DNA of 64,000 nucleotides, from the NCBI GenBank assembly GCA_963823075.1, contig CAWGKE010000001.1, positions 1,395,868 through 1,459,867 of the forward strand, given 5' to 3'. The notes below the pieces were generated by a model. The model worked only from the letters and a program-made list of their open reading frames with translations, was not told the DNA's origin and searched no databases. Positions within the stretch are counted from its first letter, which is position 1. Each line of letters begins with the position of its first letter. This document shows, one piece after another, positions 12,002-60,839 of the stretch. The DNA is from an uncultured Planctomycetaceae bacterium. GTDB lineage: Bacteria; Planctomycetota; Planctomycetia; Gemmatales; Gemmataceae. A program made the position numbers and the translations under genes.

Positions 12002-12452
12002 TGGGAACGCTCCGTCGATGCCTGAGCTTGCCCGTCCGTACCGGGGCCGGCCCCAAAGGGCGACGACACCCGCTCACTGTACCGCCTTCGACCGCGCCGA
12101 CGCGAGGACCGTAGCAGGTTGGCCACGGAAAAAAGCCGTCCGGGATAGGGCCGCGTCGGTGGGGGCGCTTAAAGCGACTATCCGGGCGGATCGTGTTGCT
12201 TCCTCGGACGGCGGGGCCGCCGGCGGAGCCTCGCAGCGTCGTTGATCGGGATCGGGTCGGCGCCGGATGCGTCGGGCGATTCGTTCATCGAGCCGCTCCA
12301 GGTGGGTGTCTCCTCACGGGGCCGCGCTTCACCGCGCGATTATCCGCGCCGGAATGGTGGACCGCAAGAGCCGGGTTCGCCTTGTGTCAGGCAACCGTCT
12401 ATCGCCGCCGAAGGGCTTGGCATCCCCCCGCTCGCCGCGGTACCATCACGGA

Positions 12453-17670: not shown

Positions 17671-17805
17671 TTCCCATTTGCGGCCCGCCGCGCCGCAAGC
17701 TATGGTTTGGTGCATAATGTCGGGAGGCCGGCGCACTCCCCCGGTCCAACGTCCGTCCCGTCCCGAGGACGGACGACCCGCGCCCGCGCCCCGCGAGACG
17801 TACTC

Positions 17806-30019: not shown

Positions 30020-30769
30020 TTAGACGGGGATTTGTGCCGAATGCGCCGCCTCGGCCGTGCTGATGACGCAGCGCAGCTCCCATTCGTCCTCGCGCGCCGA
30101 CCAGGCGGCCTCCTGCGAACGCGGCTCGGGAATCCGCCCTTCGGGGTCATAGATCAGGACGACGAGGGTGCGGCAATCGGGCCGGCCGCGGTAGTAGGCC
30201 GCGTCTTCCTTCAGCTGCTCCGTCAGCCGATCCCCGACGACGGGCGGCCGCACGACCTTGACCGCGACCGCGATCTGCTCCGGGGCGAGGCGGAAGTCGG
30301 TTCGCACGCCGGCGGCGTAGCGCGGCGTCCGTCCCTCCGGCCGCACGTCGTCGAAATGCAGCGGCAGAAGCGCCCTCAGAAGGTCTTCCAAATCTCTTTC
30401 ATCTTCCACGCGGAATGGCGGCCGATCGCCCTGCCGCCAGCGCAGCTGGCGGATCGCGCGCGGCAGGCGGCGGAGCAGCCGTTCCAGCGGGGCCGTCGGG
30501 TCCGCGGCGGGCGGCGCTTGCCGCGTCCACGGCAGGGCCGCCCCGCAGACGGAGCAGCAGCGCGCCGGCCGGCGCGTGCCGACCGGCGCCAGTCCCGGTA
30601 CAGGCGCGGCGCCGGGCAGTCCCGTGCCGCAGGTGGGGCAGCGGTCGATGGTCGCCGCCCCGCAGCGGTCGCAGGCGGTGCGGCGCCGCTCGGGATGGGT
30701 GCAGGCCAGGTCGGTGATGACGTGGCCGTTCAGGCAGACCTGCATCACGTCGCTGTCGGGGTGGGCCAT
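30020..30769 (-). CDS. Zinc-ribbon protein with a C-terminal PD-(D/E)xK-like region, hypothetical
   Basis: ATG at 30769 (MAHPDSDV). Cysteine clusters CLNGH..CDRCG..CPTCG..CCSVCG. The C-terminus FDDV...TDFRLAPEQIAVAVKV resembles an REase-fold core. The annotated N-terminal extension is a translation of the hairpin repeat. Confidence 0.45.
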   Translation of the reverse strand: MAHPDSDVMQVCLNGHVITDLACTHPERRRTACDRCGAATIDRCPTCGTGLPGAAPVPGLAPVGTRRPARCCSVCGAALPWTRQAPPAADPTAPLERLLRRLPRAIRQLRWRQGDRPPFRVEDERDLEDLLRALLPLHFDDVRPEGRTPRYAAGVRTDFRLAPEQIAVAVKVVRPPVVGDRLTEQLKEDAAYYRGRPDCRTLVVLIYDPEGRIPEPRSQEAAWSAREDEWELRCVISTAEAAHSAQIPV

Positions 30770-30785
30770 CGCTATCTCCCGTTGA

Positions 30786-30884
30786 GAGACAAGGAGAAGA
30801 GGAGACAAGGAGACAAGGAGCGGCTGAAACGGTTGTCGTTTCATCCCCTCTCCTTGTCTCCTCTTCTCCTTGTCTCCTTGTCTG
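30786..30884. repeat. Hairpin whose stems are tandem octamers, (GAGACAAG) and (CTTGTCTC), with 35-bp arms
   Basis: GAGACAAGGAGAAGAGGAGACAAGGAGACAAGGAG .. loop .. CTCCTTGTCTCCTCTTCTCCTTGTCTCCTTGTCT. Confidence 0.85.
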
Positions 30885-39232: not shown

Positions 39233-39305
39233 GCGCCCGTAGCTCAGGGGATAGAGCATCGGTTTCCTAAACCGAGGGTCGCAGGTTCAAATCCTGCCGG
39301 GCGTA
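39233..39305 (+). tRNA. tRNA-Arg(CCT)
   Basis: Cloverleaf: acceptor GCGCCCG/CGGGCGT, D-arm GCTCAGGGGATAGAGC, anticodon loop TTCCTAA, T-arm GCAGGTTCAAATCCTGC. No encoded CCA. Confidence 0.85.
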
Positions 39306-39467: not shown

Positions 39468-40069
39468 TCATTTCGCCTGGCGTGACAGTCGCTTTTCCAG
39501 CAGCGTTTTGACCTTGCCGCGCATGGTCTGGAAGTAGCAGAGGCTGGCCCGGAGCGACTGCTTGAGGTCGGCCAAGGTGTCGAACAGCCGGTTGTGCGTC
39601 GCCCGTCGCCGCAGCTTCTTCCAGAAACGCTCGATCGGGTTCAACGGGGGGCTATAACTGGGCAGACGCTTGAACTTCAGATGCGGGTACTCCGCCAGCG
39701 CCTGGTCCACCGGCTTGCCCCGGCGCCACGGCGCGGTGTCGATCCGCAGCACCACTTCCGGGTGCTTGTCCCGCGGGTACACCCGACCGACGTGGCGCAG
39801 GTGGTCCGCGAACGCCTCTTGCAGGCGCCGCGTCTTGCTCTGGCCCGTCCTCTTCTGGGCGGCCTTGGGGCTTTCCAGGGTGTTGCTGTGGACCGCCGCG
39901 CTGAGCAGGTTCACCACGGCGAAGACGTAGAGCAGGTCCTTGCAGTCGCGCGTCCCGACCGTCGGCCGGTGTCCTTTGACCCCCCGCGTTGCACCCAGCG
40001 TTGGCGCCATCGGGAAGCGGGCCTCGTCCTGACTCAGCAAGACGATTTCACCCGCCGTCGCTTTTTTTC
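39468..40069 (-). pseudogene. IS630-family transposase DDE-domain fragment (3' part of a copy split by later insertions)
   Basis: YSPPLNPIERFWKKLRRRA motif. The N-terminal residues of the annotated ORF read through the TIR of the adjacent intact IS630. It pairs with orfA at 41480-41992. Confidence 0.7.
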
Positions 40070-41239
40070 CTAGTGCAGGGCCAAGCAAGGTCTTGCCTGT
40101 GCGCAGCTGGAAGCGAACAATGAGGTATGAAACCACCCATCTTTGTTCGCACGCTCAGCGCCGCCGAACGGCTGCGGTTGCAGGCGGGGCGGCGCGCTGC
40201 CGACGCCTTTACCGTCCGCCGTTGCCAGATTCTCCTGGCCAGCGCCGCCGGTCTGCGGCCGCCGCAGATCGCCCGCAACTTGGGCTGCGCCGCGCGCACC
40301 GTTCACTACGCCCTGCACGCCTTCCGGCGCGAGGGACTGGACTGTCTCCAGGAGAAATCCTCTCGGCCGCATTCGGCCCGGCCGTTCCTGGACCAACGCC
40401 ACGCCGACGCCCTGAAGGACCTGCTGCATCACAGTCCCCGTCTGTTCGGCAAACCCACCGGCCTGTGGACCCTGGAGCTGCTCGCCGAGGTCTGCCACGG
40501 CAAGGGCTGGACCCCCCGGCGACTCAGCGGCGAAGCCGTTCGCCTGGCCCTGAAACGCCTGAACATCGGCTGGCGGCGTGCCAAGCACTGGATCACCAGC
40601 CCCGACCCGGCCTACGCGCGAAAGAAAGAAGCCCGCGATCGCTTGATCCGTCTGGTCGAGAGTCACCCGGACTGGGTCTTGGGTTTCCGGGACGAGACCT
40701 GGTGGAGCCGCCTCGCCCTGCCGCGTTGTCGCGCCTGGACCGGCGCCGAACCGCTCCGCCTGGTGGAACGGAACACCGACCGCACCGATCCGGACCCCAA
40801 GGCGCTGTGCTGCTACGGCTTGCTGCGGCAGGACACGGACCAGATGCTGCTGCGTTTCGTCGAGGGTCGGCCGGTGAGTCAGGTCACCGAGGACTACCTG
40901 GCCTGGGTGTGCGAGCAGCTGGCTGCGGAGGGCAAGAAGGCGCTGCTGCTGGTCTGGGACAACGCCTCCTGGCACGCCAGTAAGCGGGTGCGGTCCTGGA
41001 TCAAGGATCACAACCGACGGGCCAAGGCGGAGGGTGGGGTGCGGATCCTCGCCTGCCCGTTGCCGATCAAGGCGCCGTGGCTCAACGCGATCGAGCCGAA
41101 GTGGGTCCACGGCAAGAAGGCCATCGTGGAGCCGGATCGGAAGCTGACGGCGCAGGAGACCAAGGAGCGCGTCTGTCTGTATTACGGCTGCGAGCAAGTG
41201 GAACCCCTTGAGCAAAAGGCCGCTTGATCCTGCACTAGG
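40069..41239 (+). mobile_element. IS630-family insertion sequence, apparently intact
   Basis: TIRs CCTAGTGCAGGGCC... at 40069 and ...GATCCTGCACTAGG at 41239. It carries a 366-aa transposase. Inserted after a T7 run. Confidence 0.8.
40127..41227 (+). CDS. IS630-family transposase
   Basis: N-terminal HTH/wHTH. DDE region DETWWS...WDNASWH...LPIKAPWLNAIE. Confidence 0.85.
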   Translation: MKPPIFVRTLSAAERLRLQAGRRAADAFTVRRCQILLASAAGLRPPQIARNLGCAARTVHYALHAFRREGLDCLQEKSSRPHSARPFLDQRHADALKDLLHHSPRLFGKPTGLWTLELLAEVCHGKGWTPRRLSGEAVRLALKRLNIGWRRAKHWITSPDPAYARKKEARDRLIRLVESHPDWVLGFRDETWWSRLALPRCRAWTGAEPLRLVERNTDRTDPDPKALCCYGLLRQDTDQMLLRFVEGRPVSQVTEDYLAWVCEQLAAEGKKALLLVWDNASWHASKRVRSWIKDHNRRAKAEGGVRILACPLPIKAPWLNAIEPKWVHGKKAIVEPDRKLTAQETKERVCLYYGCEQVEPLEQKAA

Positions 41240-41483
41240 ATGGCAAACTTAACTTGAGAGGCCCCGAAAACGGCCTGTTCTTGAACTGGGCGGCCCAGGA
41301 AAACGCCAGAAATCGCTTGTCCGCCGAGGGTCTCAAGTTGAGTTTGCCGTCCTAGTTTTTTCCTAGGATGGCAAACTTAACTTGAGAGGCCCCGAAAACG
41401 GCCTGTTCTTGAACTGGGCGGCCCAGGAAAACGCCAGAAATCGCTTGTCCGCCGAGGGTCTCAAGTTGAGTTTGCCGTCCTAG
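41236..41483. mobile_element. Tandem pair of ~120-bp palindromic MITEs (TIR CTAGGAYGGCAAACTTAACTTGAGA)
   Basis: Copies at 41236-41355 and 41363-41483, each internally inverted-repeat and separated by a T-run. Two more copies at 43096-43340. Confidence 0.85.
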
Positions 41484-41992
41484 TTTTTTTTTAACTCGGC
41501 AATGTCTTGGCGGGCTTGGGCTTGTTTCTCGGGGTTGCCGCGCAGGTAGCGGTAGGTCGGGCGATACAGGCGGATATCGATCTTGGCACAGAAACGCTGC
41601 ACGGCGCTGCGGGATGTCTGGATGCCTCTGGTCTTGAGCAGATAGTCGGCCAACTCCTCATGGGTCCAGTTGACCCGGTCCAGACCGCACGCGGCCGGCC
41701 CGTTGATGACCCAGCGTTTGACCTCGCCGGCCAGGTGGGTCGGGATTTTGGCTGGCGCCCCCTTCGGTTTGCGGGGGCGCAGACCGTCCAGACCCCGATC
41801 GAGGTAGACGTTGAGCCAGCGTTGGACGGTGCGTGGGGTGATGGCCAGGTCCTGGGCGATGTCCTGGTGGGGTCGATGGCGGCAGGCCAAGCGGATGATG
41901 GGGATGCGATCGCGGTACTTCGGGTCGGTCTCGTGGCGGAAGGCCTGGTCGAGACGTTGGCTTTCCTCCTGGGGCAGTCGGATGCGAATCAC
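41480..41992 (-). pseudogene. IS630-family transposase N-terminal (HTH) fragment, truncated by the MITE insertion
   Basis: 170 aa, homologous to the N-terminal half of the intact IS630 transposase. The stop TAG lies within the MITE TIR. Confidence 0.7.
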
Positions 41993-42080
41993 GTCAGGTC
42001 TGGTTCCTCCTTCGGGTCACTCGACCCCATTCATTCTACGCAACCAGACAAGCCTATCGGGTTTGTGTATCAGTAGAAAG

Positions 42081-42168
42081 CGGAGAGGGAGGGATTCGAA
42101 CCCTCGGTAGACTTGTCGTCCTCACCGGTTTTCGAGACCGGCCCGATCGGCCGCTCCGGCACCTCTCC
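42081..42168 (-). tRNA. tRNA-Ser(CGA)
   Basis: Acceptor GGAGAGG/CCTCTCC. Anticodon loop CTCGAAA. Long variable arm. T-arm GAGGGTTCGAATCCCTC. Confidence 0.8.
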
Positions 42169-42521
42169 GAGAAACCGCACAAACCCGTCCTCCCCCGCAT
42201 TCTAGCAGCCCAGCCCCCTGCCGACAATTTCCCCTCCTCCCCGCCGCTTGCATCCGGCTCGAAGGACGTGGGACAGGATTCCGATCCTGTCCGGTTGGGT
42301 CAGGATTGGAATCCTGACCCACGGCCCAATAGTGTTCGGCACGGCGTTTGAGAGGGACGTAAGTGGCGATCCCCCCGTGGTTAACGGCAAATGAGCGGGT
42401 GAGCCTCGACCAATTGTTCCAATGGGCACCCATCAGCGCAACTCTCAATTGCCATTAGACTTATGCGCTTCCTCAAATCGTGTGCCGAACACTATTGCCC
42501 ACGGCCCCATGTCGTGCTCCT

Positions 42522-43906
42522 AAGCAAGTACGCAAAAGTGTTTTGACAAAGTTCATTTGAGCCAGAAGGTGTCGCTGAACACGCCGGACGTATGCAGAGC
42601 CTCTTGGTTCGACAAGCCGCCCAGGTAGTCGAGGAAGCGGTTCACCTGTTCCTCGATCGGCTCGTATTGCTTGTTGGCGCTGATCACGTCCTTGCCCTGG
42701 CCCCACAGCGTATCCATCGGGTTCAACTCCGGGGACCTCTTGGGCAGCCACAGCAGCGTCATCCCCTCCGCCTTGGCCAGCGATGCCTTGGCCGTGTGGC
42801 TGCGATTCTCATCCACGAGCATGGCCACGTGCCAGCCCCGGTAACGCCCGCGTACTTCCTCCAGGAACGCCTGGAAGTCGATGCTCTGCCCCTTCGCCCT
42901 CGGCAGGAAGAGCCGCGCCCCGGTGCGCAGGTTCATCGCCCCGAAGACGACCCGCCGCGCGTTCCAGCCGCTCAGCAGCACCGGCGCGGTTTCCCCTCGC
43001 CGCGCCCACCCCGCCCGCAGAGGCGGGAAGAGCAGCAGGTCGGTTTCGTCCTGGGCCAGCACCACGCTTCGCCTGGGCAAGGCCAGGATCTGCCGCTTGA
43101 TCCGCCGTTTTTTTCTAGGACGGCAAACTTAACTTGAGACCCCGGCGGAAAAGCGATTTCTGGCGTTTTCCTGGGCGGCCCAGTCAAGAAAAGGCCGTTT
43201 TCCCGGGGCTCTCAAGTTAAGTTTGCCATCCTAGTTTTTTTCTAGGATGGCAAACTTAACTTGAGACCCCGGCGGACAAGCGATTTCTGGCGTTTTCCTG
43301 GGCCGCCCAGTAAGAACAGGCCGTTTTCGGGGCCTCTCAAGTTGAGTTTGCCGTCCTAGTTTTTTCTCGCGCAGCGGGTCCGGCGCGAGGGCGTAACGCG
43401 GCCGCTTCCAAACGAAGTCCCACTCGGCCAGCTGCCGGCGGATGGTGTCGCAGGAGGCCTCCCGGCTCGTGGCGACGGCCAGGGCCTCGCGGAGCAGCGG
43501 CGCCGTCCAGCTTACGTGGGGGAAGCCGACGTCCGGGGGGGAGCAGTCCAGCAGCGACTCCAGCAGTTCCAGGTCGTCCTCGTCCAGCAGTCGGGGTCGC
43601 CCGGGGCGTTCGCCCTCCGCAAGAGTATCGGGCGGAGGCGTCGTGGCGAAGGCGGCCAGCCAGTTGTGGACCGTCTGGCGGGTCACGCCGAGCATCCGGG
43701 CGATGTCGGCGGCAGACCGGCCTTGGTCGAATTCGAGAACGGCCAGAGTGCGGCGGAAGAGGCGAACGTCGCAGGCCTCCCGCAGCTGTCGCCGCAATCG
43801 CCGCCGTTGCCAGGATGTCAGATGGAGTCGATCCATGGTACTTCCCCCTCTACCCGAGAGGATACCAATAAACCGGGTGTCAAATTACTTTTGCGTACCT
43901 GCTTAC
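42522..43906 (-). mobile_element. IS630-family element whose transposase gene is split by a tandem MITE pair
   Basis: TIRs AAGCA(A/G)GTACGCAAAAGT..TTTGAC at both ends. orfA 43380-43836 (HTH) and orfB 42553-43080 (DDE: SQDE.., LPKRSPELNPMD) are separated by the MITEs at 43096-43340. Confidence 0.7.
43096..43340. mobile_element. Tandem pair of ~120-bp palindromic MITEs (same family as 41236-41483, opposite orientation)
   Basis: Copies at 43096-43215 and 43223-43340, flanked and separated by T-runs. Confidence 0.85.
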
Positions 43907-44819
43907 AGGCTCTGACAAAACCTACTTTTGGCATGGAATTTGCGCTATGGCACAATGGCCCTTCTTTCTCAGAGGTTGGTGTCATGGCGAATGCACATTT
44001 ACCCGATGCCTTCTATGACCTGGTTTCGCACCATCTGCCCCCCGAAAAGCCTGTCGGTCCCAAGGGCGGTCGCCCACCAATCCCCCACCGCATAGCCCTG
44101 AAAGTGATCTGGTTCGTCCTCGTCTCCGGCTGCCGGTGGGAAGACGTGCCGCACGAGATGGGCTGCTCCGGACGCACCGCCCACCGGCGGCTGCCTTGTG
44201 GGAGGAACTGGGCGTCTGGGACCGTCTGCACGCCGATCTGCTCCGCCTGCTGCGGCAGGACGACAAGCTCGACCCCGCTCTGGTCATCGTAGACGGCGTG
44301 ATCGTGCGGGCCTTCGGCGGCGGCGAGGACACCGGCCCCAGCCCCGTGGACCGGGCGAAAAAAGGCTCCAAACACACCTTGATGGTGGATCGACACGGTG
44401 TGCCGCTGGCCATCCACACGGTGGCAGCCAACGCCAGCGATCACGGGCAGATCATCCCCATCGTGCTGGACTTCCCGCAGGTCGGCGGCAAAGTGGGCCG
44501 ACCGAAGGAACTACCCGACGAGTTGTACGCCGATGCGGGTTACGACAGCGAGGCGACCCGCTGGCTGCTGGCCTGGCTGGGGATCGAGGCCAAGATCAAC
44601 AAGCGGCGGTCGGTGCACGGGAGCGGGTTGGGCAAGGTACGCTGGGTAGTGGAGCGGACCATCAGTTGGCTCAAGGGACTGAGGCGAATGCGCATCCGCT
44701 ACGACCGCCTCAAGGTGGTCCAGGAGGCGTGGAATACGCTGGCAGCGAGTGTCATTTGCTTTCGCATTTGGCATCATGACTTCGCTGTTGCCTCATAGGG
44801 TTTTGTCAGAGCCTGTTAG
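43907..44819 (+). mobile_element. IS5-family (IS427/ISL2-like) insertion sequence
   Basis: TIRs ACAGGCTCTGACAAAACC / GGTTTTGTCAGAGCCTGT. The transposase is split over two frames (43985 to about 44195, then 44136-44798) with the DDE region DGVIVRA...YADAGYDSE. Confidence 0.75.
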
Positions 44820-46318
44820 TATTACAGCGCAGGGCGCTTTGCTCTTCTACGCGAAGGGAGAAAACGGTACAAGACGAACTCCTTCGCCCGCAGTCCGCCG
44901 TAGGAGGGACCGTTCATGGACGGGCAACAATTGCGGGCGCTCAAGCCTGAGTTGGATCGTTTTTTGGACCGGTACGCGCCCCTGTTCGGCCGTGACGAGA
45001 ATCAGGCCCATGCACGCCGCTTCGTTCAAGGACTGCTGCACAAGGGTGAACGTCGCAACATCGAGAACATCGCCGAGGCTCTCGACGGCGGTCCCGTGCG
45101 TTCCTTGCAGGCGTTTGTGACCACCGGCGCCTGGCACGACCAGGCCCTGCTGGCCGAGTTGCGCCGGGACGTGCTGGCGGTTCTCGCGGACGAGGACGCC
45201 GTCTGGAACTCGGACGAGACCGGCTTCCCCAAGAAGGGCGCCAAGTCGGTGGGGGTCAAGCGGCAATACTCCGGCACGCTCGGTCGCACGGATAATTGTC
45301 AGATCGGCGTGTTCGCCAACTACTGCTCGTCCAAGGGGCACACCTTCATGGACCGCCGCTTATTCCTGCCGGAGGAGTGGGCCGACGACGCGGGGCGACG
45401 CGCCGAGGCGGGCGTCCCCGAGGACGTGCTCTTTCGCACCAAACCAGCGTTGGCGCTGGAGATGGCAGCCAGGCCGTCGCCGAAGGCATCCCCTTCCGCT
45501 GGGTCGGCGGCGACAGTGTCTACGGCGACAACCCGACCTTCGTGCAGGGCGTGCGTGCGTTGGGCAAGTGGTATGTGTTGGACATCGCCTGCGACACGCG
45601 GGTATGGACCGAGCCACCCCAGGTCATCCCGGCGGCAGAGCGGCCGCGTCCGCGGCGTGGCCGTCCACCCACCACGCCGTTGGTGGTCGGCGAGCGGCGA
45701 CGTGTGGACGAGATCGCGGCGGCCCTTGCCGGCGACGGCCTGGCGACGCGTCGTCGTGGGCGAAGGCAGTCAGGGGCCGCGAATGTACGAATACGCTGAG
45801 GTGGCCGTGTGGTTGTGTGAGGACGAGTTGCCGGGACCGCCCGAGCGTTTGTTGGTGCGGCGTTCGCTGGGGCAGTCGGCGGAGTGGAAGTACCACCGCG
45901 CTCACGCGGCGGCGACCGTGTCGCTGGAGAAGCTGGCGCAGGTGCGTGGCACGCGCTGGACGATCGAGGAAGACATCCAGTGTGGCAAGGGGGAGTGTGG
46001 CCTGGACGAGTACGAGACGCGTGGCTGGGTGGGCTGGCACCATCACACGGCGTTGTCGCTGTTGGCGTTGGCGTTCTTGGTGCTCCAGAAGCAGCGGTTG
46101 GGGGAAAAAAAGAGCCGCAGATGACCGTCCCGGAAGTGCGCGCGTTGCTGACGCATCTGCTGGAAGTGCGCGTGTGGGACGACGACGACATCCTGGGGTG
46201 GTCGGAGTGGCGGCGCGAACGCAACCGCCGGGCCTCGGAAAGTCATCGCAAGCGGCGGCTCGCCGAACTGCGGCCGCCGCGAAGTAAGAAAAAGAAGCCT
46301 GCGCTGTAATATTAGTTC
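44820..46318 (+). mobile_element. IS701-family insertion sequence; transposase carries three frameshifts
   Basis: TIRs TAGTATTACAGCGCAGG / CCTGCGCTGTAATATTAG. Transposase 44916-46309 with RQYSGTLGRTDNCQIGVF and WTIEEDIQCGKGECGLDEY. Frame switches near 45470 and 45740, and at the A7 run near 46115. Confidence 0.75.
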
Positions 46319-51039: not shown

Positions 51040-52700
51040 ATGTCCGTTTCCTTCCGCCCGCCCGACCCCCCGGGCCGCCACGTCCCCGCCGGGACGGCCG
51101 ACCCGACCTACCCCGCCCCCGACCCGCCGCAGCCCTGCGGCGGGCCGCCCCCCGCCCCGCCGGCCTTCGCCGAAGGGGGGCCGGAATGCGACGACTGCCC
51201 GGCCGATGACGACCTCGACGGGCCGCCCCCGGAAGCCCCTGGGCTGTCGGGACGTGTTCGCCCACCCGACCGCCGACCCGGACGCCGCCTGGCGCGGCCG
51301 CCGGAGGCCCCCGCCCCGCCCCTGACCGCCGAACAGCGTCTGCTGCTGCTGGACGCCTGGCGGCGCAGCGGCCTGCCCGCCGGCGACTTCGCCCCCCTCG
51401 TCGGCGTCTCCAAACACACCCTCTACGACTGGAAACGCCGCTTCGAGGCCGAGGGGCCGGCGGGCCTGCAAGACAAGCCCCGCGGCTCCCCGCGCGGCAG
51501 CCGCCTGCCCGAGGTCACCAAGCGCGCCATCCTGATGATGAAGCAGGACAACCCGGATTGGGGCTGCGAGCGCATCAGCGCCCTGCTGCTCCGCGGCCCC
51601 GCACTGCCCGCCAGCCCCCAGGCCGTCGCCCACGTCCTGCACGAGGCCGGGTACGAGACCGAGGAAGCGCCCACGCACCCTCACGCGCCGCCCGTGCATC
51701 ATTTCGAGCGCGCCCGTCCCAACCAGTTGTGGCAGACCGACTTGTTCACCTTCGTCCTGAAGCGGCAGAACCGGCGCGTCTACCTCGTCGCCTTCCTGGA
51801 CGACCACAGCCGCTTCCTGGTCGGCTACGGCCTGCACGCCAGCCAGTCGGCCGCCCTGGTGCTGGAGGTCTTCCGCGCCGCCCTGGCGAGCTACGGGGCG
51901 CCGGAGGAGGTGCTGACCGACAACGGCAGCCAGTACGTGACCTGGCGCGGCAAGAGCGCCTTCAGCAAGGAGCTGGAGAAGCGGGGGGTGCGCCAGGTGG
52001 TCGCCGCGCCGCGGCACCCGCAGACGCTGGGCAAGATCGAGCGGTTCTGGGGGACGCTGTGGCGGGAGTGCGTCGAGGCGGCGGTGTTCCTCGACCTGGG
52101 GGACGCCCAGCGCCGCATCGGCCTGTTCATCGACCATTACAACTTCCAACGGCCGCACCGGGGGATCGGTGGTCTGGTCCCGGCCGACCGCTTCTTCGGG
52201 GCGGCCCCCGAGGTGCTGCGGACGCTGCAGGCGCGGGTGGCGGGCAACGCCCTGGCGCTGGCGCGGCACGGCACGCCGCGGGAGCCGTTCTACCTGACGG
52301 GGCAGGTGGGGGGCAAGCCGTTCAGCCTGCACGCCGAGGGGGAGCGGGTGATTCTGACGGGGGCGGAGGGGACGCGGAAGGAGATCGACCTGACTCCGCC
52401 CGCGCCGGCGGCCGCTGCCCCGCCGCCTCCCGCGGCACCGCCGGCCGTGGAGCAACGTTCCGCGCCGGCGGCGGCCGGGCCGTCGGCGTTGCCGCAGCCG
52501 GTCTGTCCGCAGGGCGTGGTCGCGGGCATCCACCCCGGCGACGTTCAGGACCCTCCGCCGCCGCTCGACTCTACTCCCCTTGGGGAGATCACGGACTTCG
52601 AGCAGCTCCAGCATGGGCCTGAGGGTCGCCGGCTTGCGCACCGCTGTAGAGACATTGGGGGGGGCTTTCGTGGCTTTCTTGCGCGGCGCCATGGGGCGAT
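51040..52700 (+). CDS. IS481-family (rve integrase-core) transposase; no stop codon before the next gene
   Basis: HTH region LLLLDAWRRSGLPAGDFAPLVGVSKHTLYDWKRRF. DDE core WQTDLFTF...LDDHSRFLV...TDNGSQY. The frame stays open until 53727. Confidence 0.7.
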
Positions 52701-53727: not shown

Positions 53728-54882
53728 TCAGCCGACGATTTCCGCCAGCGCCGCGGCCAGGGCGTCCACGTCTTCGGCGGTGTTGAACGGCCCGGTGCTG
53801 ACGCGGACGGTCCCGTCCTTGTCGCTGTCCTTGACGTAGGCGCCGAGGGCGCGGTGGATGTACGGGGAGCAGTGCAGTCCGGGCCGGACGGCGATGCCGA
53901 ACTGGGAGTCGAAGATCGCGCCAGCTCCAGCGCCGGCATCGCCTCGGCCCGGAAGCTCAGCGTGCTGACCCGCCGCGCGGCGTCGCCGCCGCCGTACACC
54001 GTGACGCCGGCCATCTCCTCCAGCCGCCGGCGCAGGCGCTCGATCAGCTCCATTTCCCGAGCGTGAATGCGTTCGATTCCCTGCTCCTGCACCCAGCGGA
54101 CGCCGGCCGCCAGCCCCGCCACGCCGAGGACGTTGGGCGTGCCGCCTTCGAGGAAATGGGGGAATTCGACCGGCTGCGTCTCGCTGGACGAGTCGCCGCC
54201 GGTGCCGCCCTCGCGCCAGGCCCGCAGCACGGCGCGGGGACCGACGTACAAAGCCCCGGTGCCGGTCGGCCCCATCAGCGACTTGTGGCCGGGGAAAGCG
54301 AGCAGGTCGATGTTCATTTGCCGCACGTCGATCGGCACGACCCCCGCCGTCTGCGCCGCATCCACGAGAAACAGCAGATCGTGTTCGCGCACGATGCGGC
54401 CGACCTCGCCGACCGGCTGGACCGTGCCGAGGACGTTGCTGGCGTGGGTCAGGGCGACAAGGCGCGTGCGCGGCATGATCGCCCGGCGCACGTCGTCGGG
54501 ACTGACGTAGCCGTCGCCGTCGGCCCGGAGACGTGTGAGAGTTATGCGACCGTCTTTCTCCATCGCGCGCAGCGGACGGCTGACGCTGTTGTGTTCGAGG
54601 TCGGTGGTGACGACGTGATCGCCCGCGTTGAGGACGCCTTTGAAGGCCATGTTGAGGGCGTCGGTGCAGTTGAGGGTGAAGACGAAGCGCTTGGCCCCCT
54701 CGCCGTGGAAGAACTGGTTGAGGAGGTGCCGGCCGTTGTTGAGGGCGTCCTCGGCCTCGCGGGCCATCTTGTGGCCGGCGCGGCCGGGGTTGGCGAGGCT
54801 CTTGCGCGAAGGCGTCGAGGGCCTGGTAGACAGACTCCGGTTTGGGATAACTGGTAGCGGCGTTGTCGAGATAGATCATCAC
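53728..54882 (-). CDS. Cysteine desulfurase-family class V aminotransferase (at least two frameshifts)
   Basis: N-terminus MMIYLDNAATSYPKPESVYQAL. PLP region FPGHKSLMGPTGTGALY in the 53568..54767 frame. C-terminal end GLHCSPYIHRALGAY..VRVSTGPFNTAEDVDAL returns to the first frame. Confidence 0.65.
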   Translation of the reverse strand: MMIYLDNAATSYPKPESVYQALDAFAQEPRQPRPRRPQDGPRGRGRPQQRPAPPQPVLPRRGGQALRLHPQLHRRPQHGLQRRPQRGRSRRHHRPRTQQRQPSAARDGERRSHNSHTSPGRRRRLRQSRRRAPGDHAAHAPCRPDPRQQRPRHGPAGRRGRPHRARTRSAVSRGCGADGGGRADRRAANEHRPARFPRPQVADGADRHRGFVRRSPRRAAGLARGRHRRRLVQRDAAGRIPPFPRRRHAQRPRRGGAGGRRPLGAGAGNRTHSRSGNGADRAPAPAAGGDGRRHGVRRRRRRAAGQHAELPGRGDAGAGAGAIFDSQFGIAVRPGLHCSPYIHRALGAYVKDSDKDGTVRVSTGPFNTAEDVDALAAALAEIVG

Positions 54883-54903: not shown

Positions 54904-55512
54904 TCACGGCAAGATTTCACGGACGGGGATGCGGGCGATCTCGCTGCCATCGAGGACGAGGGGGATGGATTCATCGACGGTGAAGTCGCGGCGGGTGCGG
55001 TAGGACGGTGAACGACCCGTCTTCGGCTCGGTGTAAACCTCCACGCGCCGGTTGACCAAATTGACGATCCAGTACACCGCAATGCGGGCCTGGGCGTACA
55101 GGGGGCCTTTGGCGTCTCGGTCGTATGCCACGGTGGCGTCGGCTACCTCAACGAGCAAAGCGATGTCCTTTGGGCCGGGATGCCGCCGGTCGTAGGTTTC
55201 CTCGGAGCCTATCGCAATTACGATGTCGGGTTCCGGCTCGCTGTCCTTTAGCGTGATCGCGCTTTGAACACGGACGCTCCATTCCTCGGAAAGGAGGCGG
55301 TACAGGCGTCGTGTGAGCCGAGCGACGGCAGAGTCATGGGGCGGCTTGTGTGTCATTTTGCGAACAATCCAGCCCTTGAACAGTTCGACCCGGACATCGG
55401 GCTTGAAGATTCCCAGATCGATCATGCGGTGATACTGATCGACCGTGAAGCGGTGATAGCGAACGGCTTCCGCCGCCGTTTGGGTCGGCGGCGCGGCAAC
55501 GGCGACGTTCAT
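54904..55512 (-). CDS. Uma2-family (DUF820) PD-(D/E)xK endonuclease
   Basis: 202 aa. YELIDG-like EL..G motif and a PD-(D/E)xK core (PDIVIA...EVAD), characteristic of Uma2. Confidence 0.6.
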   Translation of the reverse strand: MNVAVAAPPTQTAAEAVRYHRFTVDQYHRMIDLGIFKPDVRVELFKGWIVRKMTHKPPHDSAVARLTRRLYRLLSEEWSVRVQSAITLKDSEPEPDIVIAIGSEETYDRRHPGPKDIALLVEVADATVAYDRDAKGPLYAQARIAVYWIVNLVNRRVEVYTEPKTGRSPSYRTRRDFTVDESIPLVLDGSEIARIPVREILP

Positions 55513-55536: not shown

Positions 55537-56571
55537 TCAATGCCCGACGTATTTAGCATACAGCGTCCGCGCCCGCTCCACGTCGCTGGTGCCCTTGATG
55601 ATGGCCCGGCCGTCGGGGAAGACCGTGAACTCGCAGCTTTCCGCGTTGAATTTCAGGAGAAAGCGGTTGTAATGCACCTCGCCGAGCGGCCCCAGTTGCC
55701 GGGCCATGTCCTCGAAGTTCAGGCGCGACGGCGCCCGCTGCGACACCTGCACGGCGTTGCGGCCGCACAGGCTCGTCGTCTGCGAGCCGTGTTCGCCGTC
55801 CAGCCACTCGAACCGCCGACGCCGGCAGCACGGGCAATCGACCTTGCCCAACAGCGGCGCCATCTTGATGCGCCGCTGCACGTTCTCCCACACGTCGAAA
55901 TACAGCAGCTCACGGTTGATCTGGTCGCGCTTGCCGACGAGGATTTTGATGGCCTCGGCCGCCTGATAGCTGGCGATGATGTTGACGATCGGCCCCAGGA
56001 CGCCGGTCGTCTCGCAGGTGCCGGCCTCGCCGGGGGCCGGCGCCGCCTCGAAGACGCAGCGCAAACACGGCGTCTCGTTCGGCAGGATCGTCATCGTCTG
56101 GCCGTGGCTGCCGATGCAGCCGCCGTAAACCCACGGCTTGTTCAGCTTCACCGCGGCGTCGTTGATGAGATATCGGACCTCGAAATTGTCGCTGCCGTCG
56201 AGGATCAGGTCGGCGTCCTGCACCAGCTCCAGAATGTTCGTGCGGTCGATGTCCGCCACCACCGGCTCGACGTGGACGCTGGAGTTGATCGCCCCCAGCT
56301 TGCGGGCGGCGGCCTCCGCCTTGGGCAGTCTCTCCGCCACGTCGTGTTCATCGAACAGCACCTGGCGCTGGAGATTGCTCGTCTCGATGAAGTCGCGGTC
56401 GATGAGCCGCAGATGGCCGACGCCGGCGCGGACCAGCGCGTTGGCCAGCACCGTGCCGAGGGCGCCGCAGCCGCACAGCGTCACCCGCGCGTCCAGCAGC
56501 TTGCGCTGGCCGACCTCGCCGACGCCGTAGAAGCGCATCTGCCGGCTGTACCGCTCCAGGGATTCGTCCAT
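55537..56571 (-). CDS. ThiF/MoeB/MoeZ-type E1-like sulfur-carrier adenylyltransferase
   Basis: Start MDESLERYSRQMRF. Glycine-rich nucleotide loop GCGALGTVLANAL. Region CxxC CLRC...CPCC. C-terminal ~100-aa extra domain. Confidence 0.8.
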   Translation of the reverse strand: MDESLERYSRQMRFYGVGEVGQRKLLDARVTLCGCGALGTVLANALVRAGVGHLRLIDRDFIETSNLQRQVLFDEHDVAERLPKAEAAARKLGAINSSVHVEPVVADIDRTNILELVQDADLILDGSDNFEVRYLINDAAVKLNKPWVYGGCIGSHGQTMTILPNETPCLRCVFEAAPAPGEAGTCETTGVLGPIVNIIASYQAAEAIKILVGKRDQINRELLYFDVWENVQRRIKMAPLLGKVDCPCCRRRRFEWLDGEHGSQTTSLCGRNAVQVSQRAPSRLNFEDMARQLGPLGEVHYNRFLLKFNAESCEFTVFPDGRAIIKGTSDVERARTLYAKYVGH

Positions 56572-56573
56572 TG

Positions 56574-56912
56574 CTACGCTTCGCCTCCGTCGCCGACGCC
56601 GAAGTCCGTGAGAAACGTCTTGAGGAACTGGGTCAGCTGTTTGGGCCATTTCTCGCTCCGGCCGAAGGCGGCGAGGCAAGTCATGTCCTCGCGCACCCTT
56701 CGCAGCCGGTCCCCGTCGAGCCGCTGGAGATAGCCTGCCACGTACTCCAGCGCCTCCTCGGCGGCGGCGGGGTGGACGACGTTTTCATCCGAACCGGAGA
56801 GGAAAACGGCGGAATGAAGCACAGCCAGCAGCAGCGGATCGGCGCCCAGCTCCGCCGGGATGAGCGGAAAAACGGCGGCGCCGTCGGGGGCCTCGTCGGG
56901 TCGGTCAGCCAC
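56574..56912 (-). CDS. Hypothetical protein (possible operon member)
   Basis: 112-aa ORF. Overlaps the moaD end by 8 nt and the E1 start by 4 nt. No domain recognised. Confidence 0.3.
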   Translation of the reverse strand: MADRPDEAPDGAAVFPLIPAELGADPLLLAVLHSAVFLSGSDENVVHPAAAEEALEYVAGYLQRLDGDRLRRVREDMTCLAAFGRSEKWPKQLTQFLKTFLTDFGVGDGGEA

Positions 56913-57177
56913 CGGCCACCGCGGGGATGATCGCCACCTCGTCGCCGTCCTTGACCGGCGTGGCGAGGTTGTCCAGATAGCGCACGTCCTCGTTGTTGAC
57001 GTAGAGGTTGATGAACGGCCGCACCTTGCCGTTCTGGAAGATGCGCTCGGCGAGGGCGGGGTACTTGGCGCCCAGGTCGGCCAGCGCCGCCTGCACCGTG
57101 CCGCCGGACACCTCCACCGTCGTCTTGCCGTCGGTGTGTTGCCGCATGGGCGTCGGAATCTGAACTTTGATCGCCAT
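56905..57177 (-). CDS. MoaD/ThiS-family sulfur carrier protein
   Basis: 90 aa with C-terminal GG. Beta-grasp length. Confidence 0.8.
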   Translation of the reverse strand: MAIKVQIPTPMRQHTDGKTTVEVSGGTVQAALADLGAKYPALAERIFQNGKVRPFINLYVNNEDVRYLDNLATPVKDGDEVAIIPAVAGG

Positions 57178-57240
57178 GAAGACTCCTTTTCGGTCGAAAA
57201 TAGGTCTTATGGGTCCTATGAGTCCTATAAGACGCCCCCG

Positions 57241-58533
57241 TCACGCCAGCGCCGGTTCACGGCTGCCTTCCACCAACGGCTCGAACTCCTCCAGCCTCGG
57301 CCCGATCACCGCCGGCTGTTCCAGCAGGTCGGCCACCGCCTCCTGCGTCTTCAGGCCGTTGCCGGTGATGCACACCACGATCTCCTCGTCGCGGCCGATG
57401 CGGCCCTGCTCGAGCAGCTTGCGCGTCACCGCCAGCGTCACGCCGCCGGCCGTCTCCGCGAAGATGCCTTCGGTGCGGCCCAGCAGCGCCATCGCCTCGG
57501 CGATCTCCGCGTCGCTCACGTCCTCGGCCCAGCCGCCCGAGTCGCGGATCACCTTGGCCGCGAAGTAGCCGTCGGCCGGGTCGCCGATCGCCAGCGACTT
57601 GGCGATGGTGTTCGGCCTGCCGCACCGGCTTGTGCGCCTCCCAGCCGTTCTTGACCATCGTGCTGATCGGGCTGCAACCGCTCGGCTGGGCGCCGTGGAA
57701 CTTGCACTGCGGCTTCGCCGATCAGGCCGGTCTTGTGCAGCTCGCGGAACGCCTTGTCGATCTTGCCGATCAGGCTGCCGCCGGCCATCGGGCAGACGAC
57801 GTGCCGCGGCGTCCGCCAGCCGAGCTGCTCGGCGATCTCGAAGCCGAACGTCTTCGACCCCTCGGCGTAGTACGGCCGCAGGTTGATGTTGACGAAGCCC
57901 CAGCCGTACTTGAACGCCACCTGCGTACAGAGACGATTGACCTCGTCATAGGTGCCCCTGACGCCGACGACCTTCGCCCCGTAGACGCTGGTGCCGAGAA
58001 TCTTGGCCCGCTCCAGGTCGGCCGGCACGAAGATGTAGGCGTTCGAGGCCGGCCGCGGCGGCTTGGCGGCGACGCTGTTGGCGAGGTTGCCGGTCGAGGC
58101 GCAGCCGACGGTCGTGAAGCCGAACTCGCGGGCCTTGCTCAGGGCCACCGCCACGACGCGGTCCTTGAACGACAGCGTCGGGTAGTTGACGGCGTCGTTC
58201 TTGAGCCAGAGACGCTCGACGCCCAGCTCCGCGGCCAGGCGGTCGGCCCGGACCAGCGGCGTGCCGCCGACCTGGCGGCCGACGGTCGGCTCGCCGTCCA
58301 GCGGCAGGAACTCCGCGTAGCGCCACATATTGATTGTAGCGGGATTCGATCTTGCCGCGGCTGACGGCCTCGGCGATGGCGTCGTAGTCGTAATCGACTT
58401 CGAGCGGGCCGAAATCCTCGGTGCAGAAGTTGAGGGGGGAGGCCGGGTAGGCGTGGCCGCACAGGCGGCACTTCAGGCCGCGAACGAACGGGGAAGACAC
58501 GGAGCATACCCTCCAAACGACGGATGAACCCAT
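57241..58533 (-). CDS. Threonine synthase-like PLP enzyme (ThrC family; candidate MetM-type O-phosphohomoserine sulfhydrylase). Two frameshifts
   Basis: N-terminal Zn-ribbon-like CRLCGH..FC. PLP-lysine motif LSFKDR. Three frames join at about 58325 and about 57560-57700. Confidence 0.65.
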
Positions 58534-58650
58534 CACGCGCGGAGGTGCGTATCGTCCAGAGGAGGGATTGTGTAGCACAAGCTTAAGCTTGTGCCACAAC
58601 GAGAGAAGAAGAGGCGTGCGGGGCACACGATCTTATCTCTCCCGGCCGCG

Positions 58651-58739
58651 GCCGGGTAGGAGGTAGCACCAGCGTTTCCCTTGCGGAAAACCGGTTGCTG
58701 TGGCTTCACAGGGCCCAGTCCCTCAGCCACTCTGGATAA
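58651..58739 (-). ncRNA. SAM-I (S-box) riboswitch
   Basis: On the minus strand: CTTATCCAGAGTGGCTGAGGGACTGGCCCTGTGAAGCCACAGCAACC...GCTGGTGCTACCTCC...AGAGATAAG. P1 is CTTATC/GATAAG, and the conserved GAGGGA, GCAACC and GGTGC cores are present. It lies in the leader of the thrC-like gene. Confidence 0.85.
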
Positions 58740-58946
58740 GATACCCACCAAGTTGTCCTTAGAATCTTAGAAAGGCCGGCCGCGAAGGGCAATGGCGCTC
58801 CCGGAGATTTTGCCGAAATGCGGCCGCCGCGTCCCGCAAAATCGTTTTTGGCGCGGACCGTCGGCCCCGCCTATTCTTGCGGCAGCGCCCCCTCCGCCGT
58901 AAAATGATCTCGGTGAGCCTCATCCTTCGCCCCCCAGGAGCGCCGC

Positions 58947-59372: not shown

Positions 59373-59493
59373 CGCCAGCCGACTCGACGCCCTCCGCCGC
59401 GACCTCGCCGCGCCGCTGCCGCACCCCGGCCCCGATGCGCTGCGCGCCTCCGGCCTCCAGGCGCTGGACTGGCTGCTGAATCACCACGCCACA

Positions 59494-60839
59494 TTGCCGG
59501 ATCAGCCCATCGGCCGCTCCGCCTCGCGGGCCGAGATGGAACGCCTCCTCCGCGAGCCGCCGCCGGAAGAGGGCCGCGACTTCGCCGCCGTCCTCGCCGA
59601 GTTCGCCGACAAGGTCGCCCCCTTCGCGATCCGCGTCAACCACCCGCGCTTCCTGGCCTTCGTGCCGGGGGCGCCGACCTTCCTTTCCGTTATAGGCGAT
59701 CTTCTTTGTGCTGGAACTAACTTCTTCGCCGGCGTCTGGCTGGAAGCGGCCGGGCCGACGGAAGTGGAATTGGTCGTCCTCGACTGGTTCCGCGAGTTCC
59801 TCGACATGCCGCCGGGGACGATGGGGATTCTCACCGGCGGCGGTTCCGAGGCCAACCTGACCGCCCTGGTCGTGGCCCGCGAACGGCTGTCCGAGGAGGA
59901 GCGCGGCCGGGCCGTCCTGTACGTCGCCGAGCAGCGGCACTGGTCCGTCGATCGGGCCGCGAAGATCATGGGCCTTCGGCCGAACCAGCTGCGGCCCGTG
60001 CCGGCCGACGACGACTTCCGCCTGACGCCGGCCGCCCTGGCGCGGGCGGTCGTCCGGGACCGGCGGGAGGGGCTGCGGCCGTGGGCCGTCGTCGCCAACG
60101 CCGGCACGACCAACACCGGGGCCGTCGATCCGCTCGGGCCGCTGGCCGACCTGTGCGCCGCGGAGCGGCTGTGGCTGCACGTCGATGCGGCCTACGGCTG
60201 GACGGCGGTGCTGACGCCGGAGGGCCGCGACGAGCTGGCCGGCATCGGCCGGGCCGACTCGGTGACGCTGGACCCGCACAAGACGCTGGCCCAGACCTTC
60301 GAGGCAGGCTGCGTGCTGGTGCGCGACGGCCGGCTGCTGCGGCAGGCGTTCACGCTGCGGCCGGAGTACATGCAGGACGTGGCGCCGGCCGACGACGAGG
60401 TGAACTTCGCCGACCACGGGATCGCCCTGACGCGGCGGTTCCGGGCGCTGAAGATCTGGCTGTCGATGAAGGTGCTGGGCGTCGGCTGGTTCCGGGCGCT
60501 GGCGGAGCGCTGCCGACGGCTGGCGGAGTATGCGCAGGCGCTGCTGGAACGGGACGGCCGTTTCGAGATGCTGTCGCCGCGGCGGCTGAGCATCGTCTGT
60601 TTCCGCTTTGCACCGCCGCGGGTCGCGCGTCGAAGAGCCGGACTCTGGATCGTCTGAATCTGGCACTGATCGATGCGGTGCGGGCGACGGGGCGGGCGTT
60701 CCTGTCCTCGACGCGGCTGCGGGGACGGACGGCGATCCGCTTCTGCTTCGTCAACTGGCGGACCACAGCGGCCGACGTGGAAGAGGTGGTGCGGCTGCTG
60801 GCGGCGCTGGGGGAGGAACTGGCGAGCCGGGTCGCGTAG
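59494..60839 (+). CDS. Group II PLP-dependent decarboxylase (aromatic-L-amino-acid/glutamate decarboxylase family), frameshift near 60625
   Basis: LTGGGSEANL, HVDAAYGW and LDPHKTL motifs. The true N-terminus probably extends upstream into about 59370 in the same frame. The C-terminal 60 aa continue in the 60081..60839 frame. Confidence 0.65.

Follow-up and report, generated by a model that had tools for sequence, protein, structure and literature searches.

A SAM-riboswitch operon of Gemmatales with a candidate protein-thiocarboxylate route to homocysteine

Introduction

A threonine synthase (ThrC) family gene that lies behind an S-adenosylmethionine (SAM) riboswitch and beside a sulfur-carrier gene raises the question of what its enzyme makes. 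Such a locus is found in a 64,000-nucleotide (nt) stretch of an uncultured Planctomycetaceae bacterium (Gemmataceae in GTDB; GenBank assembly GCA_963823075.1, contig CAWGKE010000001.1, positions 1,395,868 to 1,459,867), here called the window. A preliminary description of this sequence had proposed that the gene serves homocysteine formation by a protein thiocarboxylate and not threonine synthesis. Our analysis points to a SAM-repressed methionine-branch operon that would convert O-phosphohomoserine to homocysteine by a route of the MetM/MetO type, a reading to which we assign a probability of roughly 0.78.

The MetM/MetO pathway was reported from Streptomyces albulus (Hasebe et al. 2024, Appl Environ Microbiol 90:e01247-24, here as cited in PMC12172450 and in the GapMind preprint, 10.1101/2024.10.14.618325). 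According to these sources, MetM is a ThrC homologue, often misannotated as ThrC, that forms homocysteine from O-phosphohomoserine and thiocarboxylated MetO. The S. albulus metM gene has a SAM riboswitch upstream and the carrier gene adjacent, and cyanobacterial homologues are 51.6% (MetM) and 47% (carrier) identical (PMC12172450; 10.1101/2024.10.14.618325). Because the pathway has been published and is already part of GapMind, the core of our proposal is not new. What appear to be undescribed in the literature searched are its Gemmatales-wide presence in the loci examined, the self-contained operon, and a small conserved protein, p112.

Results

The riboswitch and the operon

Rfam cmscan at the gathering threshold found a single riboswitch within the window, a SAM-I aptamer (RF00162) whose score of 85.0 bits (E = 1e-18) is well above the cutoff of 44.4. 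The four-helix aptamer is complete, and just two non-standard pairs are flagged. An S-box aptamer had been placed by eye at 58651-58739 on the minus strand, and this interval falls within the Rfam match. The genes that follow lie on the same strand, in the order given here.

58630-58742, minus strand: SAM-I riboswitch aptamer (RF00162, model positions 1-108 of 108)
57241-58500, minus strand: MetM-like ThrC-family enzyme dependent on pyridoxal 5'-phosphate (PLP), 418 amino acids (aa) after correction of five single-base indels (Pfam PALP)
56905-57177, minus strand: MetO-like ThiS/MoaD sulfur carrier, 90 aa, with the free end ...IIPAVAGG (Pfam ThiS, 64 bits)
56574-56912, minus strand: p112, a conserved open reading frame (ORF) of 112 aa with no Pfam or NCBIfam match
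55537-56571, minus strand: ThiF/MoeB-type E1 adenylyltransferase, 344 aa, with a C-terminal domain of ~90 aa (Pfam ThiF, 253 bits)
54904-55512, minus strand: Uma2-family gene (PF05685) between E1 and desulfurase genes (Pfam Uma2, 98 bits)
53728-54882, minus strand: cysteine desulfurase of the TIGR01977 type, a class-V aminotransferase with two frameshifts (Pfam Aminotran_5, 227 bits)

The gene content anticipated for the locus is largely what we find: a gene of the threonine synthase family 3' of the riboswitch, a MoaD/ThiS carrier ending in GG (...AVAGG), a small ORF without family match and a cysteine-desulfurase-like gene nearby. All four enzymes and the carrier retain their catalytic residues. 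The carrier gene begins 63 nt 3' of the ThrC-like gene, and its product also matches NCBIfam SAMP1 (67 bits) and the MoaD family (51 bits). The last 8 nt of the carrier gene are shared with the start of p112, whose own stop codon in turn overlaps the first codon of the E1; these two overlaps suggest translational coupling. The p112 protein is a four-helix protein, restricted to Gemmatales and without detectable relatives.

The true start of the E1 is the ATG at 56571. Its PDB relatives are ThiF, MoeB and Uba4, and it matches NCBIfam PRK12475 from end to end (positions 3-338 of 338) with 386 bits, under the family cutoff of 510. The translation holds two CxxC pairs, which we take to be a zinc site, and a cysteine in the motif GTCETTGVLGP, which presumably corresponds to Cys184 of Escherichia coli ThiF. 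Pfam finds no rhodanese domain in this protein, and the MoeZ model covers the adenylation half alone (positions 18-254 of 392). An E1 of ThiF/MoeZ character had been proposed; the ThiF family assignment holds, and the MoeZ-like part does not, because the rhodanese domain is absent.

In the desulfurase, both the PLP lysine of GHK and the active-site cysteine of GLHC are intact once the frames are corrected. The type assignment comes from the orthologue in a relative (L002), which scores 412 bits against TIGR01977 with a cutoff of 377. The Uma2 gene that separates the desulfurase from the E1 is probably a passenger: the window copy is 48% identical to that of the relative L007 (L007:12033-12647), and the flanking DNA is 93% identical. 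Across loci, Uma2 genes often abut the desulfurase start, and they have the look of a cassette, hypervariable or mobile, that occupies a fixed position. In PADLOC, the window gene weakly matches the candidate system PDC-S03.

Family placement of the ThrC-like enzyme

After frame correction, the ThrC-like protein is 92% and 91% identical over its full length to intact Gemmataceae homologues of 418 aa, and the PLP lysine of SFKDR is intact. Its closest cluster families, in a search of 1.84 billion cluster representatives, are 46-59% identical. Among the relatives is an actinomycete protein (P0124, from a Micromonosporaceae metagenome-assembled genome) with 54% identity, whose gene sits immediately 3' of a SAM riboswitch. 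The names found for the top 150 family representatives and in two cluster look-ups were Micromonosporaceae and archaeal only. A tblastn search of a plasmid collection matched only the Nonomuraea gerenzanensis chromosome, which is labelled as a plasmid there. At this locus (L006), a SAM riboswitch is followed by a ThrC-like gene and then by a gene for a 91-aa carrier ending in IIPAVAGG. The window enzyme is 52% identical to the Nonomuraea enzyme, and 52-54% identical to the riboswitch-linked actinomycete proteins taken together; the two carriers share 46% identity and the IIPAVAGG terminus. The metM-metO-csp-groEL synteny of the Nonomuraea locus presumably mirrors S. coelicolor SCO4293-4296.

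Solved relatives of the window protein are threonine synthases only, with E-values of 1e-54 or weaker, and identity to five of them is 29-37%. In a neighbour-joining phylogeny, 98.5% of 200 bootstraps recover a clade of at most 20 members that holds the window protein and both actinomycete proteins and excludes the solved threonine synthases, while the exact 8-member clade is weak (24%). Thus, with the actinomycete proteins standing in for MetM, the ThrC homologue falls in a clade apart from canonical ThrC. The sequence motifs divide the proteins in the same way, with the window and actinomycete clade given first and the solved threonine synthases second.

After the PLP lysine: SFKDRVV versus SFKDRGM
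Substrate loop 1: CASTGNLANS versus CASTGNTSAS
Substrate loop 2: NLRPYYAEGSKT versus NSVNPxRxEGQKT
Later loop: IAKSLAIGDPADG versus IATAIRIGNPASW
Near the C-terminus: FAETAGGV versus FxEPASAA

The canonical active-site loops (SFKDRG and NPxRxEGQKT) are present in all five solved threonine synthases and not in the window protein. In ThrC, the phosphate of the substrate is presumably bound by the arginine-bearing NPxRxEGQKT loop.

Outside Gemmatales, the nearest family is one from a JGI metagenome (L004:5784-8065), with 57-59% identity in the ThrC-like protein. This locus holds the riboswitch, the ThrC-like gene and a carrier, with no E1, p112 or desulfurase gene nearby. Its carrier extends 18 residues past the GG, so proteolytic maturation would be needed there.

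Conservation across Gemmatales

An alignment of p112 was scanned against one genome per GTDB species, and relatives were found in 147 species. The locus counts below rest on the best of these 147 relatives (about 80 species), and the number of loci that can be judged varies by feature. All of the best 80 seem to belong to Gemmatales; some few records bear the names of other groups. Among these 80 are Limnoglobus roseus PX52, Gemmata algarum JC673, Gemmata sp. IIL30 and isolate CJuql4. When the window proteins were mapped onto the loci, the order MetM - MetO - p112 - E1 - (Uma2) - desulfurase was seen nearly everywhere.

SAM aptamer 5' of the ThrC-like gene: 64/64 judgeable loci
ThrC-like gene 5' of p112: 65/66
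E1: 77/77
Desulfurase at most 7 kb downstream: 51/63
Uma2: 37/63

The aptamer precedes the orthologous gene in L001 and L002 too, and it is also found at the actinomycete loci L003 and L006 and at L004. Across the flanks of 82 loci, no other neighbouring gene proved to be conserved.

Three variations of the locus were observed. The sole judgeable locus without a ThrC-like gene or aptamer within 6.7 kb upstream is L013 (JAJPHU010000102.1), which has the carrier, p112, E1 and desulfurase. In 31/83 loci the gap between E1 and desulfurase is filled by a small same-strand gene pair (103 + 85 aa; for example L001:13591-14165 and L010:7410-7981), sometimes alongside Uma2; the pair is not in the window. 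A toxin-antitoxin label for it was considered and withdrawn, as neither Pfam nor PADLOC supports it. In a subclade (L001:11308-11862, L002:11424-11960, also L016, L028 and L047), an extra gene of ~180 aa separates the ThrC-like gene from the carrier gene, where the window has the 63-nt gap (57178-57240). This gene is very divergent, the L001 and L002 copies being 23% identical to each other; the translations of these two suggest a zinc ribbon at the N-terminus and, after it, hydrophobic segments that probably span the membrane.

The leader and the proposed switch

Between the aptamer and the first gene lies a leader that, one hairpin excepted, is strongly conserved in an alignment of the window with L001 and L002. 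Its elements and those of the proposed switch are listed here in 5' to 3' order on the minus strand.

58730-58751, minus strand: switching strand, comprising the 5' flank and the 5' strand of helix P1 (TTGGTGGGTATCTTATCCAGAG), complementary to 58541-58562
58501-58629, minus strand: putative expression platform, covered by the leader alignment with L001 and L002
58615-58629, minus strand: small hairpin of the expression platform, conserved in that alignment
58602-58614, minus strand: pyrimidine tract CCTCTTCTTCTCT, complementary to the 3' strand of P1 and likewise conserved
58572-58597, minus strand: window-specific hairpin, the variable middle hairpin of the leader
58541-58562, minus strand: switch element E2 (CCTCTGGACGATACGCACCTCC, also written CCUCUGGACGAUACGCACCUCC), able to pair either with the switching strand or with the Shine-Dalgarno sequence
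58541-58547, minus strand: anti-Shine-Dalgarno CACCTCC, the 3' end of E2, complementary to GGAGGG
58509-58514, minus strand: Shine-Dalgarno GGAGGG, read from the sequence, 8 nt 5' of the GTG start at 58498-58500

The Shine-Dalgarno sequence and GTG start are kept in L001, L002 and L007. In RNAduplex, E2 and the 5' flank/P1 strand form a duplex of -25.6 kcal/mol (z = -4.5 against shuffles), and the same duplex gives z-scores of -2 to -4.7 in most relatives. The minimum free energy structure of the unliganded leader contains this long-range helix and lacks P1. When the aptamer is taken out of the folding, as a proxy for the SAM-bound state, CACCUCC pairs with GGAGGG. Unconstrained RNAduplex searches for the Shine-Dalgarno partner were too noisy in GC-rich leaders, and a targeted comparison of the E2 tail with the Shine-Dalgarno sequence was used instead. 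The tail CACCTCC accompanies GGAGG in 17 loci, and CACCCC accompanies GGGGTG in 12-15 loci. Within the long-range duplex, the pair GGTGGGT/GATACNCACC is swapped for GGTGAGT/ACTCACC in the Gemmata-type clade, and TCCAG/CTGGA is swapped for TCGAG/CTCGA in L029 and L036, which are compensatory variants. The evidence for the proposed switch is folding, conservation, duplex z-scores and co-variation at clade level.

We then propose a model for the switch in which SAM masks the ribosome-binding site and represses translation of the first gene. With SAM bound, P1 would form and free E2 (CCUCUGGACGAUACGCACCUCC), whose 3' end would cover GGAGG and block translation. Without SAM, E2 would pair with the 5' flank and the P1 5' strand, and the ribosome-binding site would be open. 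Transcription termination was considered as the mode of the window riboswitch and rejected, because no stem with a U-run above chance is present in the window leader: only one terminator-like match was obtained, the small hairpin, whose T tract is weak, and shuffled sequence gives the same count.

Some relatives do have a terminator-like element. A hairpin CCTCTTC...(C)GGAAGAGG with a U-run lies 3' of the aptamer in leaders L012, L029, L036, L052, L059, L070, L073, L076 and L086, and the window's clade retains just the 5' half of this stem (CCTCTTCTTCTCT, 58602-58614). Across the order, transcriptional and translational control may therefore be mixed. The hairpin at 58572-58597 is a perfect 11-bp stem that contains AAGCTTAAGCTT with two HindIII sites, and it was not seen in the other leaders examined.

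Frameshifts: assembly error or decay

Comparison with intact 418-aa homologues and with DNA of two relatives, L001 and L007, reveals four 1-nt insertions (near 57616-19, 57710-14, 58042 and 58332) and one 1-nt deletion (~58062) in the ThrC-like gene. Five frame corrections are needed, and not the two that had been proposed. The pair at 58042 and 58062 compensates locally and is thus not visible in an ORF map. In the desulfurase gene, the frame is broken twice, by the loss of 2 nt at 54804 and of 1 nt at ~53919. A gene divergent from the operon (~59380-60839, plus strand) encodes a PLP decarboxylase of group II (Pyridoxal_deC), for which the diaminobutyrate decarboxylase model is the closest. 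Its C-terminal ~70 residues are read in another frame (60081-60839), so that one more frameshift seems to lie near 60.6 kb. Every frameshift noticed in the window falls in a PLP enzyme gene.

One possible explanation is that the operon is truly decaying, in which case the ThrC-like and desulfurase genes would be real pseudogenes and the pathway would be dead here and work in relatives. The ThrC-like gene has five indels in 1.26 kb and the desulfurase gene has two, which is consistent with decay, as is the placement of the indels outside any homopolymer of three or more bases. So are the ~9 kb of long ORFs elsewhere in the window, which read in a single frame with full-length Pfam coverage, and the IS481-type element that adjoins the operon, with several further insertion sequences in the window. 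However, the substitutions tell a different story. With L001 as outgroup, 14 synonymous and 2 non-synonymous codon changes are unique to the window, and the intact L007 copy, with 17 and 6, fares no better; a gene in decay would be expected to show an indel-to-substitution ratio far from five indels per about two non-synonymous substitutions. Once the frames are corrected, no stop codon is left and all catalytic motifs are intact; the ThrC-like gene is unbroken in L007, L001 and 120 database homologues. The long-read-style assemblies of L007 and L002 are frameshifted in other genes of the same operon, and the neighbouring decarboxylase, a third PLP gene, also appears shifted, a pattern that points to a locally poor consensus. 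Decay is therefore an unlikely explanation.

Five indels together with substitutions of the kind left by purifying selection do not fit an old pseudogene, and we consider the indels very likely to be errors of the consensus at a place where the metagenome assembly is of poor quality. The errors are local and not window-wide. A uniformly error-ridden assembly was considered and rejected, since the frame candidates from third-position GC content (GC3) are separate, complete, adjacent genes by Pfam and the long ORFs elsewhere are intact. Because the seven frameshifts in the two PLP genes are most likely assembly errors, the pathway is probably functional in the organism. No methylation motif common to the indel sites was found when their contexts were compared by eye alone, without a motif scan; the recognition motifs of the methylase and endonucleases encoded in the window (see below) gave no match to these sites either, again by eye alone.

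Discussion

The proposed pathway

Together, our results are best read as a methionine-branch operon, and we propose the following series of reactions by analogy with MetM/MetO, CysM/CysO and HcyS/MetY, from which the substrate, product, sulfur donor and release step are transferred. The cysteine desulfurase would convert cysteine sulfur to a persulfide. The E1 would adenylate the C-terminal glycine of the 90-aa carrier, and the persulfide sulfur would turn the resulting acyl-adenylate into a thiocarboxylate. The ThrC-like PLP enzyme would then take the phosphate off O-phosphohomoserine and place the thiocarboxylate sulfur on the gamma carbon. Homocysteine, once released, would be converted to methionine and further to SAM, the ligand of the riboswitch. 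The MetM/MetO reading of the preliminary description is supported by the grouping of the window enzyme with riboswitch-linked, carrier-adjacent actinomycete proteins (52% identity, 98.5% of bootstraps).

Several points weigh against this reading. An intact homologue (P0002) passes the TIGR00260 thrC equivalog with 267.9 bits against a cutoff of 167.1, so annotation by hidden Markov models alone would name the protein threonine synthase; evidently, this model does not separate MetM-type proteins. Orthology to the characterised S. albulus MetM and MetO is drawn through an actinomycete proxy, the Nonomuraea locus. The E1 lacks the rhodanese domain of MoeZ in both Pfam and NCBIfam. No JAMM/Mec hydrolase was found among the operon proteins by Pfam or conserved in the flanks of the 82 loci, and the homocysteine release step is thus left unexplained. 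The indels cluster in three PLP enzyme genes and avoid homopolymers (three or more bases), an unusual pattern for sequencing error. For the leader, the evidence is purely comparative and thermodynamic, and complementarity served to locate the E2 segments. Finally, our view spans the 64-kb window, and a separate ThrC, a Mec gene or another homocysteine route elsewhere in the genome would lie outside it; within the window there is no other methionine gene.

A second alternative to the proposed pathway is that the ThrC-like enzyme uses the thiocarboxylate or free sulfide for another sulfur compound, such as cysteine from O-phosphoserine in the manner of CysM/CysO or a thio-metabolite. Protein-thiocarboxylate chemistry serves several products, among them cysteine, thiamin, the molybdenum cofactor and thioquinolobactin, and we know of no enzymology for any member of the Gemmatales. 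Moreover, a MetM homologue of Microcystis reportedly acted as a threonine synthase/deaminase and did not raise methionine (PMC12172450). However, SAM-I riboswitches govern methionine and SAM genes, and one is present in 64/64 loci. The enzyme has the ThrC fold and not that of CysK/CysM, and its closest context-matched relatives are actinomycete loci of the metM type. We therefore regard another product as quite improbable.

Least probable is an ordinary threonine synthase whose neighbours, the carrier, E1 and desulfurase, belong to some unrelated pathway, for example that to molybdopterin or thiamin: the protein does pass the TIGR00260 cutoff and every named one among its 120 closest database homologues is called threonine synthase, but a SAM riboswitch on a threonine synthase gene would make no regulatory sense, the gene order with its overlapping stops and starts is fixed in ~80 species, identity is 29-37% to solved threonine synthases against 52% to the riboswitch-linked actinomycete clade, SFKDRVV stands in place of SFKDRGM, the NPxRxEGQKT loop differs, and there are no moa, moe or thi genes near the operon. 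The earlier rejection of threonine synthesis thus agrees with the identities, the motifs and the riboswitch in 64/64 loci.

Comparison with known systems

The window operon shares with the MetM/MetO system a ThrC-family PLP enzyme, an adjacent MoaD/ThiS carrier ending in GG and a SAM riboswitch. Its identities to the Nonomuraea proteins (52% for the enzyme, 46% for the carrier) are in the range of those published for cyanobacteria (51.6% and 47%). The charging of the carrier differs: in Streptomyces, the carrier is reportedly charged by an unlinked MoeZ, an E1 with rhodanese domain, and needs the JAMM hydrolase Mec, whereas the window operon has its own long E1 without rhodanese, a TIGR01977-type desulfurase, the Gemmatales-only p112 and no JAMM gene. 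Two further differences are that the window riboswitch appears to act on translation, and that the N-terminal zinc ribbon of the window enzyme has three cysteines only (CxxC...C).

Two other systems combine a PLP enzyme with a carrier thiocarboxylate. In the HcyS/HcyF/HcyD/MetY system of Wolinella succinogenes, the sulfur of homocysteine likewise comes from a protein thiocarboxylate, but there the PLP enzyme is MetY, an O-acetylhomoserine sulfhydrylase that has the Cys/Met-metabolism fold and uses O-acetylhomoserine as substrate (Tran et al. 2011, PMC3176619, as cited in PMC8191291). The window enzyme is not of the Cys_Met_Meta_PP fold and has the PALP/ThrC fold instead. The Wolinella carrier has a C-terminal extension that is cut by the JAMM protease HcyD, and its sulfur derives from sulfite reduction. 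Krishnamoorthy and Begley are said to have described in 2011 a dedicated Wolinella E1, HcyF, encoded in the same cluster, in which respect the window operon resembles that system. The CysO/CysM/MoeZ/Mec system of Mycobacterium tuberculosis also joins an O-phospho-amino acid and a carrier thiocarboxylate by a PLP enzyme. It differs in that CysM has the CysK/CysM fold and makes cysteine from O-phosphoserine, MoeZ has a rhodanese domain, Mec is required, and the system is not SAM-regulated.

With canonical ThrC (PDB 1uim, 2zsj, 6cgq and 2d1f; identity 34-37%), the window protein has in common the fold, SFKDR, the presumed substrate O-phosphohomoserine and a TIGR00260 score above the cutoff. In contrast to canonical ThrC, it has an extra N-terminal zinc-ribbon region of ~55 aa and an 8-residue insertion before IAKSLAIG, and its gene is under a SAM riboswitch in an operon with a sulfur carrier. 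The E1 is most like the long MoeB/ThiF adenylyltransferases of PRK12475, which are presumably Bacillus-type enzymes: the 338-aa model is matched from end to end including the C-terminal domain, and neither has rhodanese. Unlike these, the window E1 stays below the family cutoff (386 against 510 bits) and lies in a methionine operon and not among thiamin or molybdopterin genes.

It is tempting to speculate that p112 is a new obligatory component of protein-thiocarboxylate metabolism, either as an E1 partner or persulfide relay that replaces the rhodanese domain, or as a homocysteine-release factor that replaces JAMM, though we consider this rather doubtful. As an E1 partner, p112 would bridge the desulfurase and the E1. 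Whatever its role, p112 is a conserved protein without detectable relatives whose role is directly testable.

If the proposed pathway is correct, the MetM/MetO route reported in 2024 would extend from actinomycetes to a whole order of Planctomycetota. Since the named homologues are all labelled threonine synthase, reconstructions of methionine pathways would misassign the gene. The operon is self-contained, with sensor, PLP enzyme, carrier, E1 and sulfur donor, and would thus serve conveniently as a cassette in attempts to reconstitute the pathway; among its hosts are the cultured Limnoglobus roseus PX52 and Gemmata algarum JC673. Should this be the sole homocysteine route of these bacteria, a SAM riboswitch over carrier charging would be a clear case of end-product control of a ubiquitin-like activation system.

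Other features of the window

An IS481-type integrase gene (51040-52500) lies ~1.2 kb from the end of the desulfurase gene, with one ORF between; the matching position of L007 holds DsbD_N and thioredoxin genes. Further away, transposase ORFs (three DDE_3, DDE_Tnp_1, DDE_5 and HTH parts) at 39468-46121 surround two tRNA genes (39233-39305 and 42081-42168). A C5 cytosine DNA methylase gene adjoins one for an EcoO109I-like restriction endonuclease (9666-12070, minus strand), and a DpnII/MboI-like endonuclease with a DUF2321 domain is encoded at 30020-30883 (minus strand). An ORF with a complete Tubulin_2 domain (PF13809; 18435-20639, plus strand) adjoins a Ser/Thr kinase gene (17671-18828).

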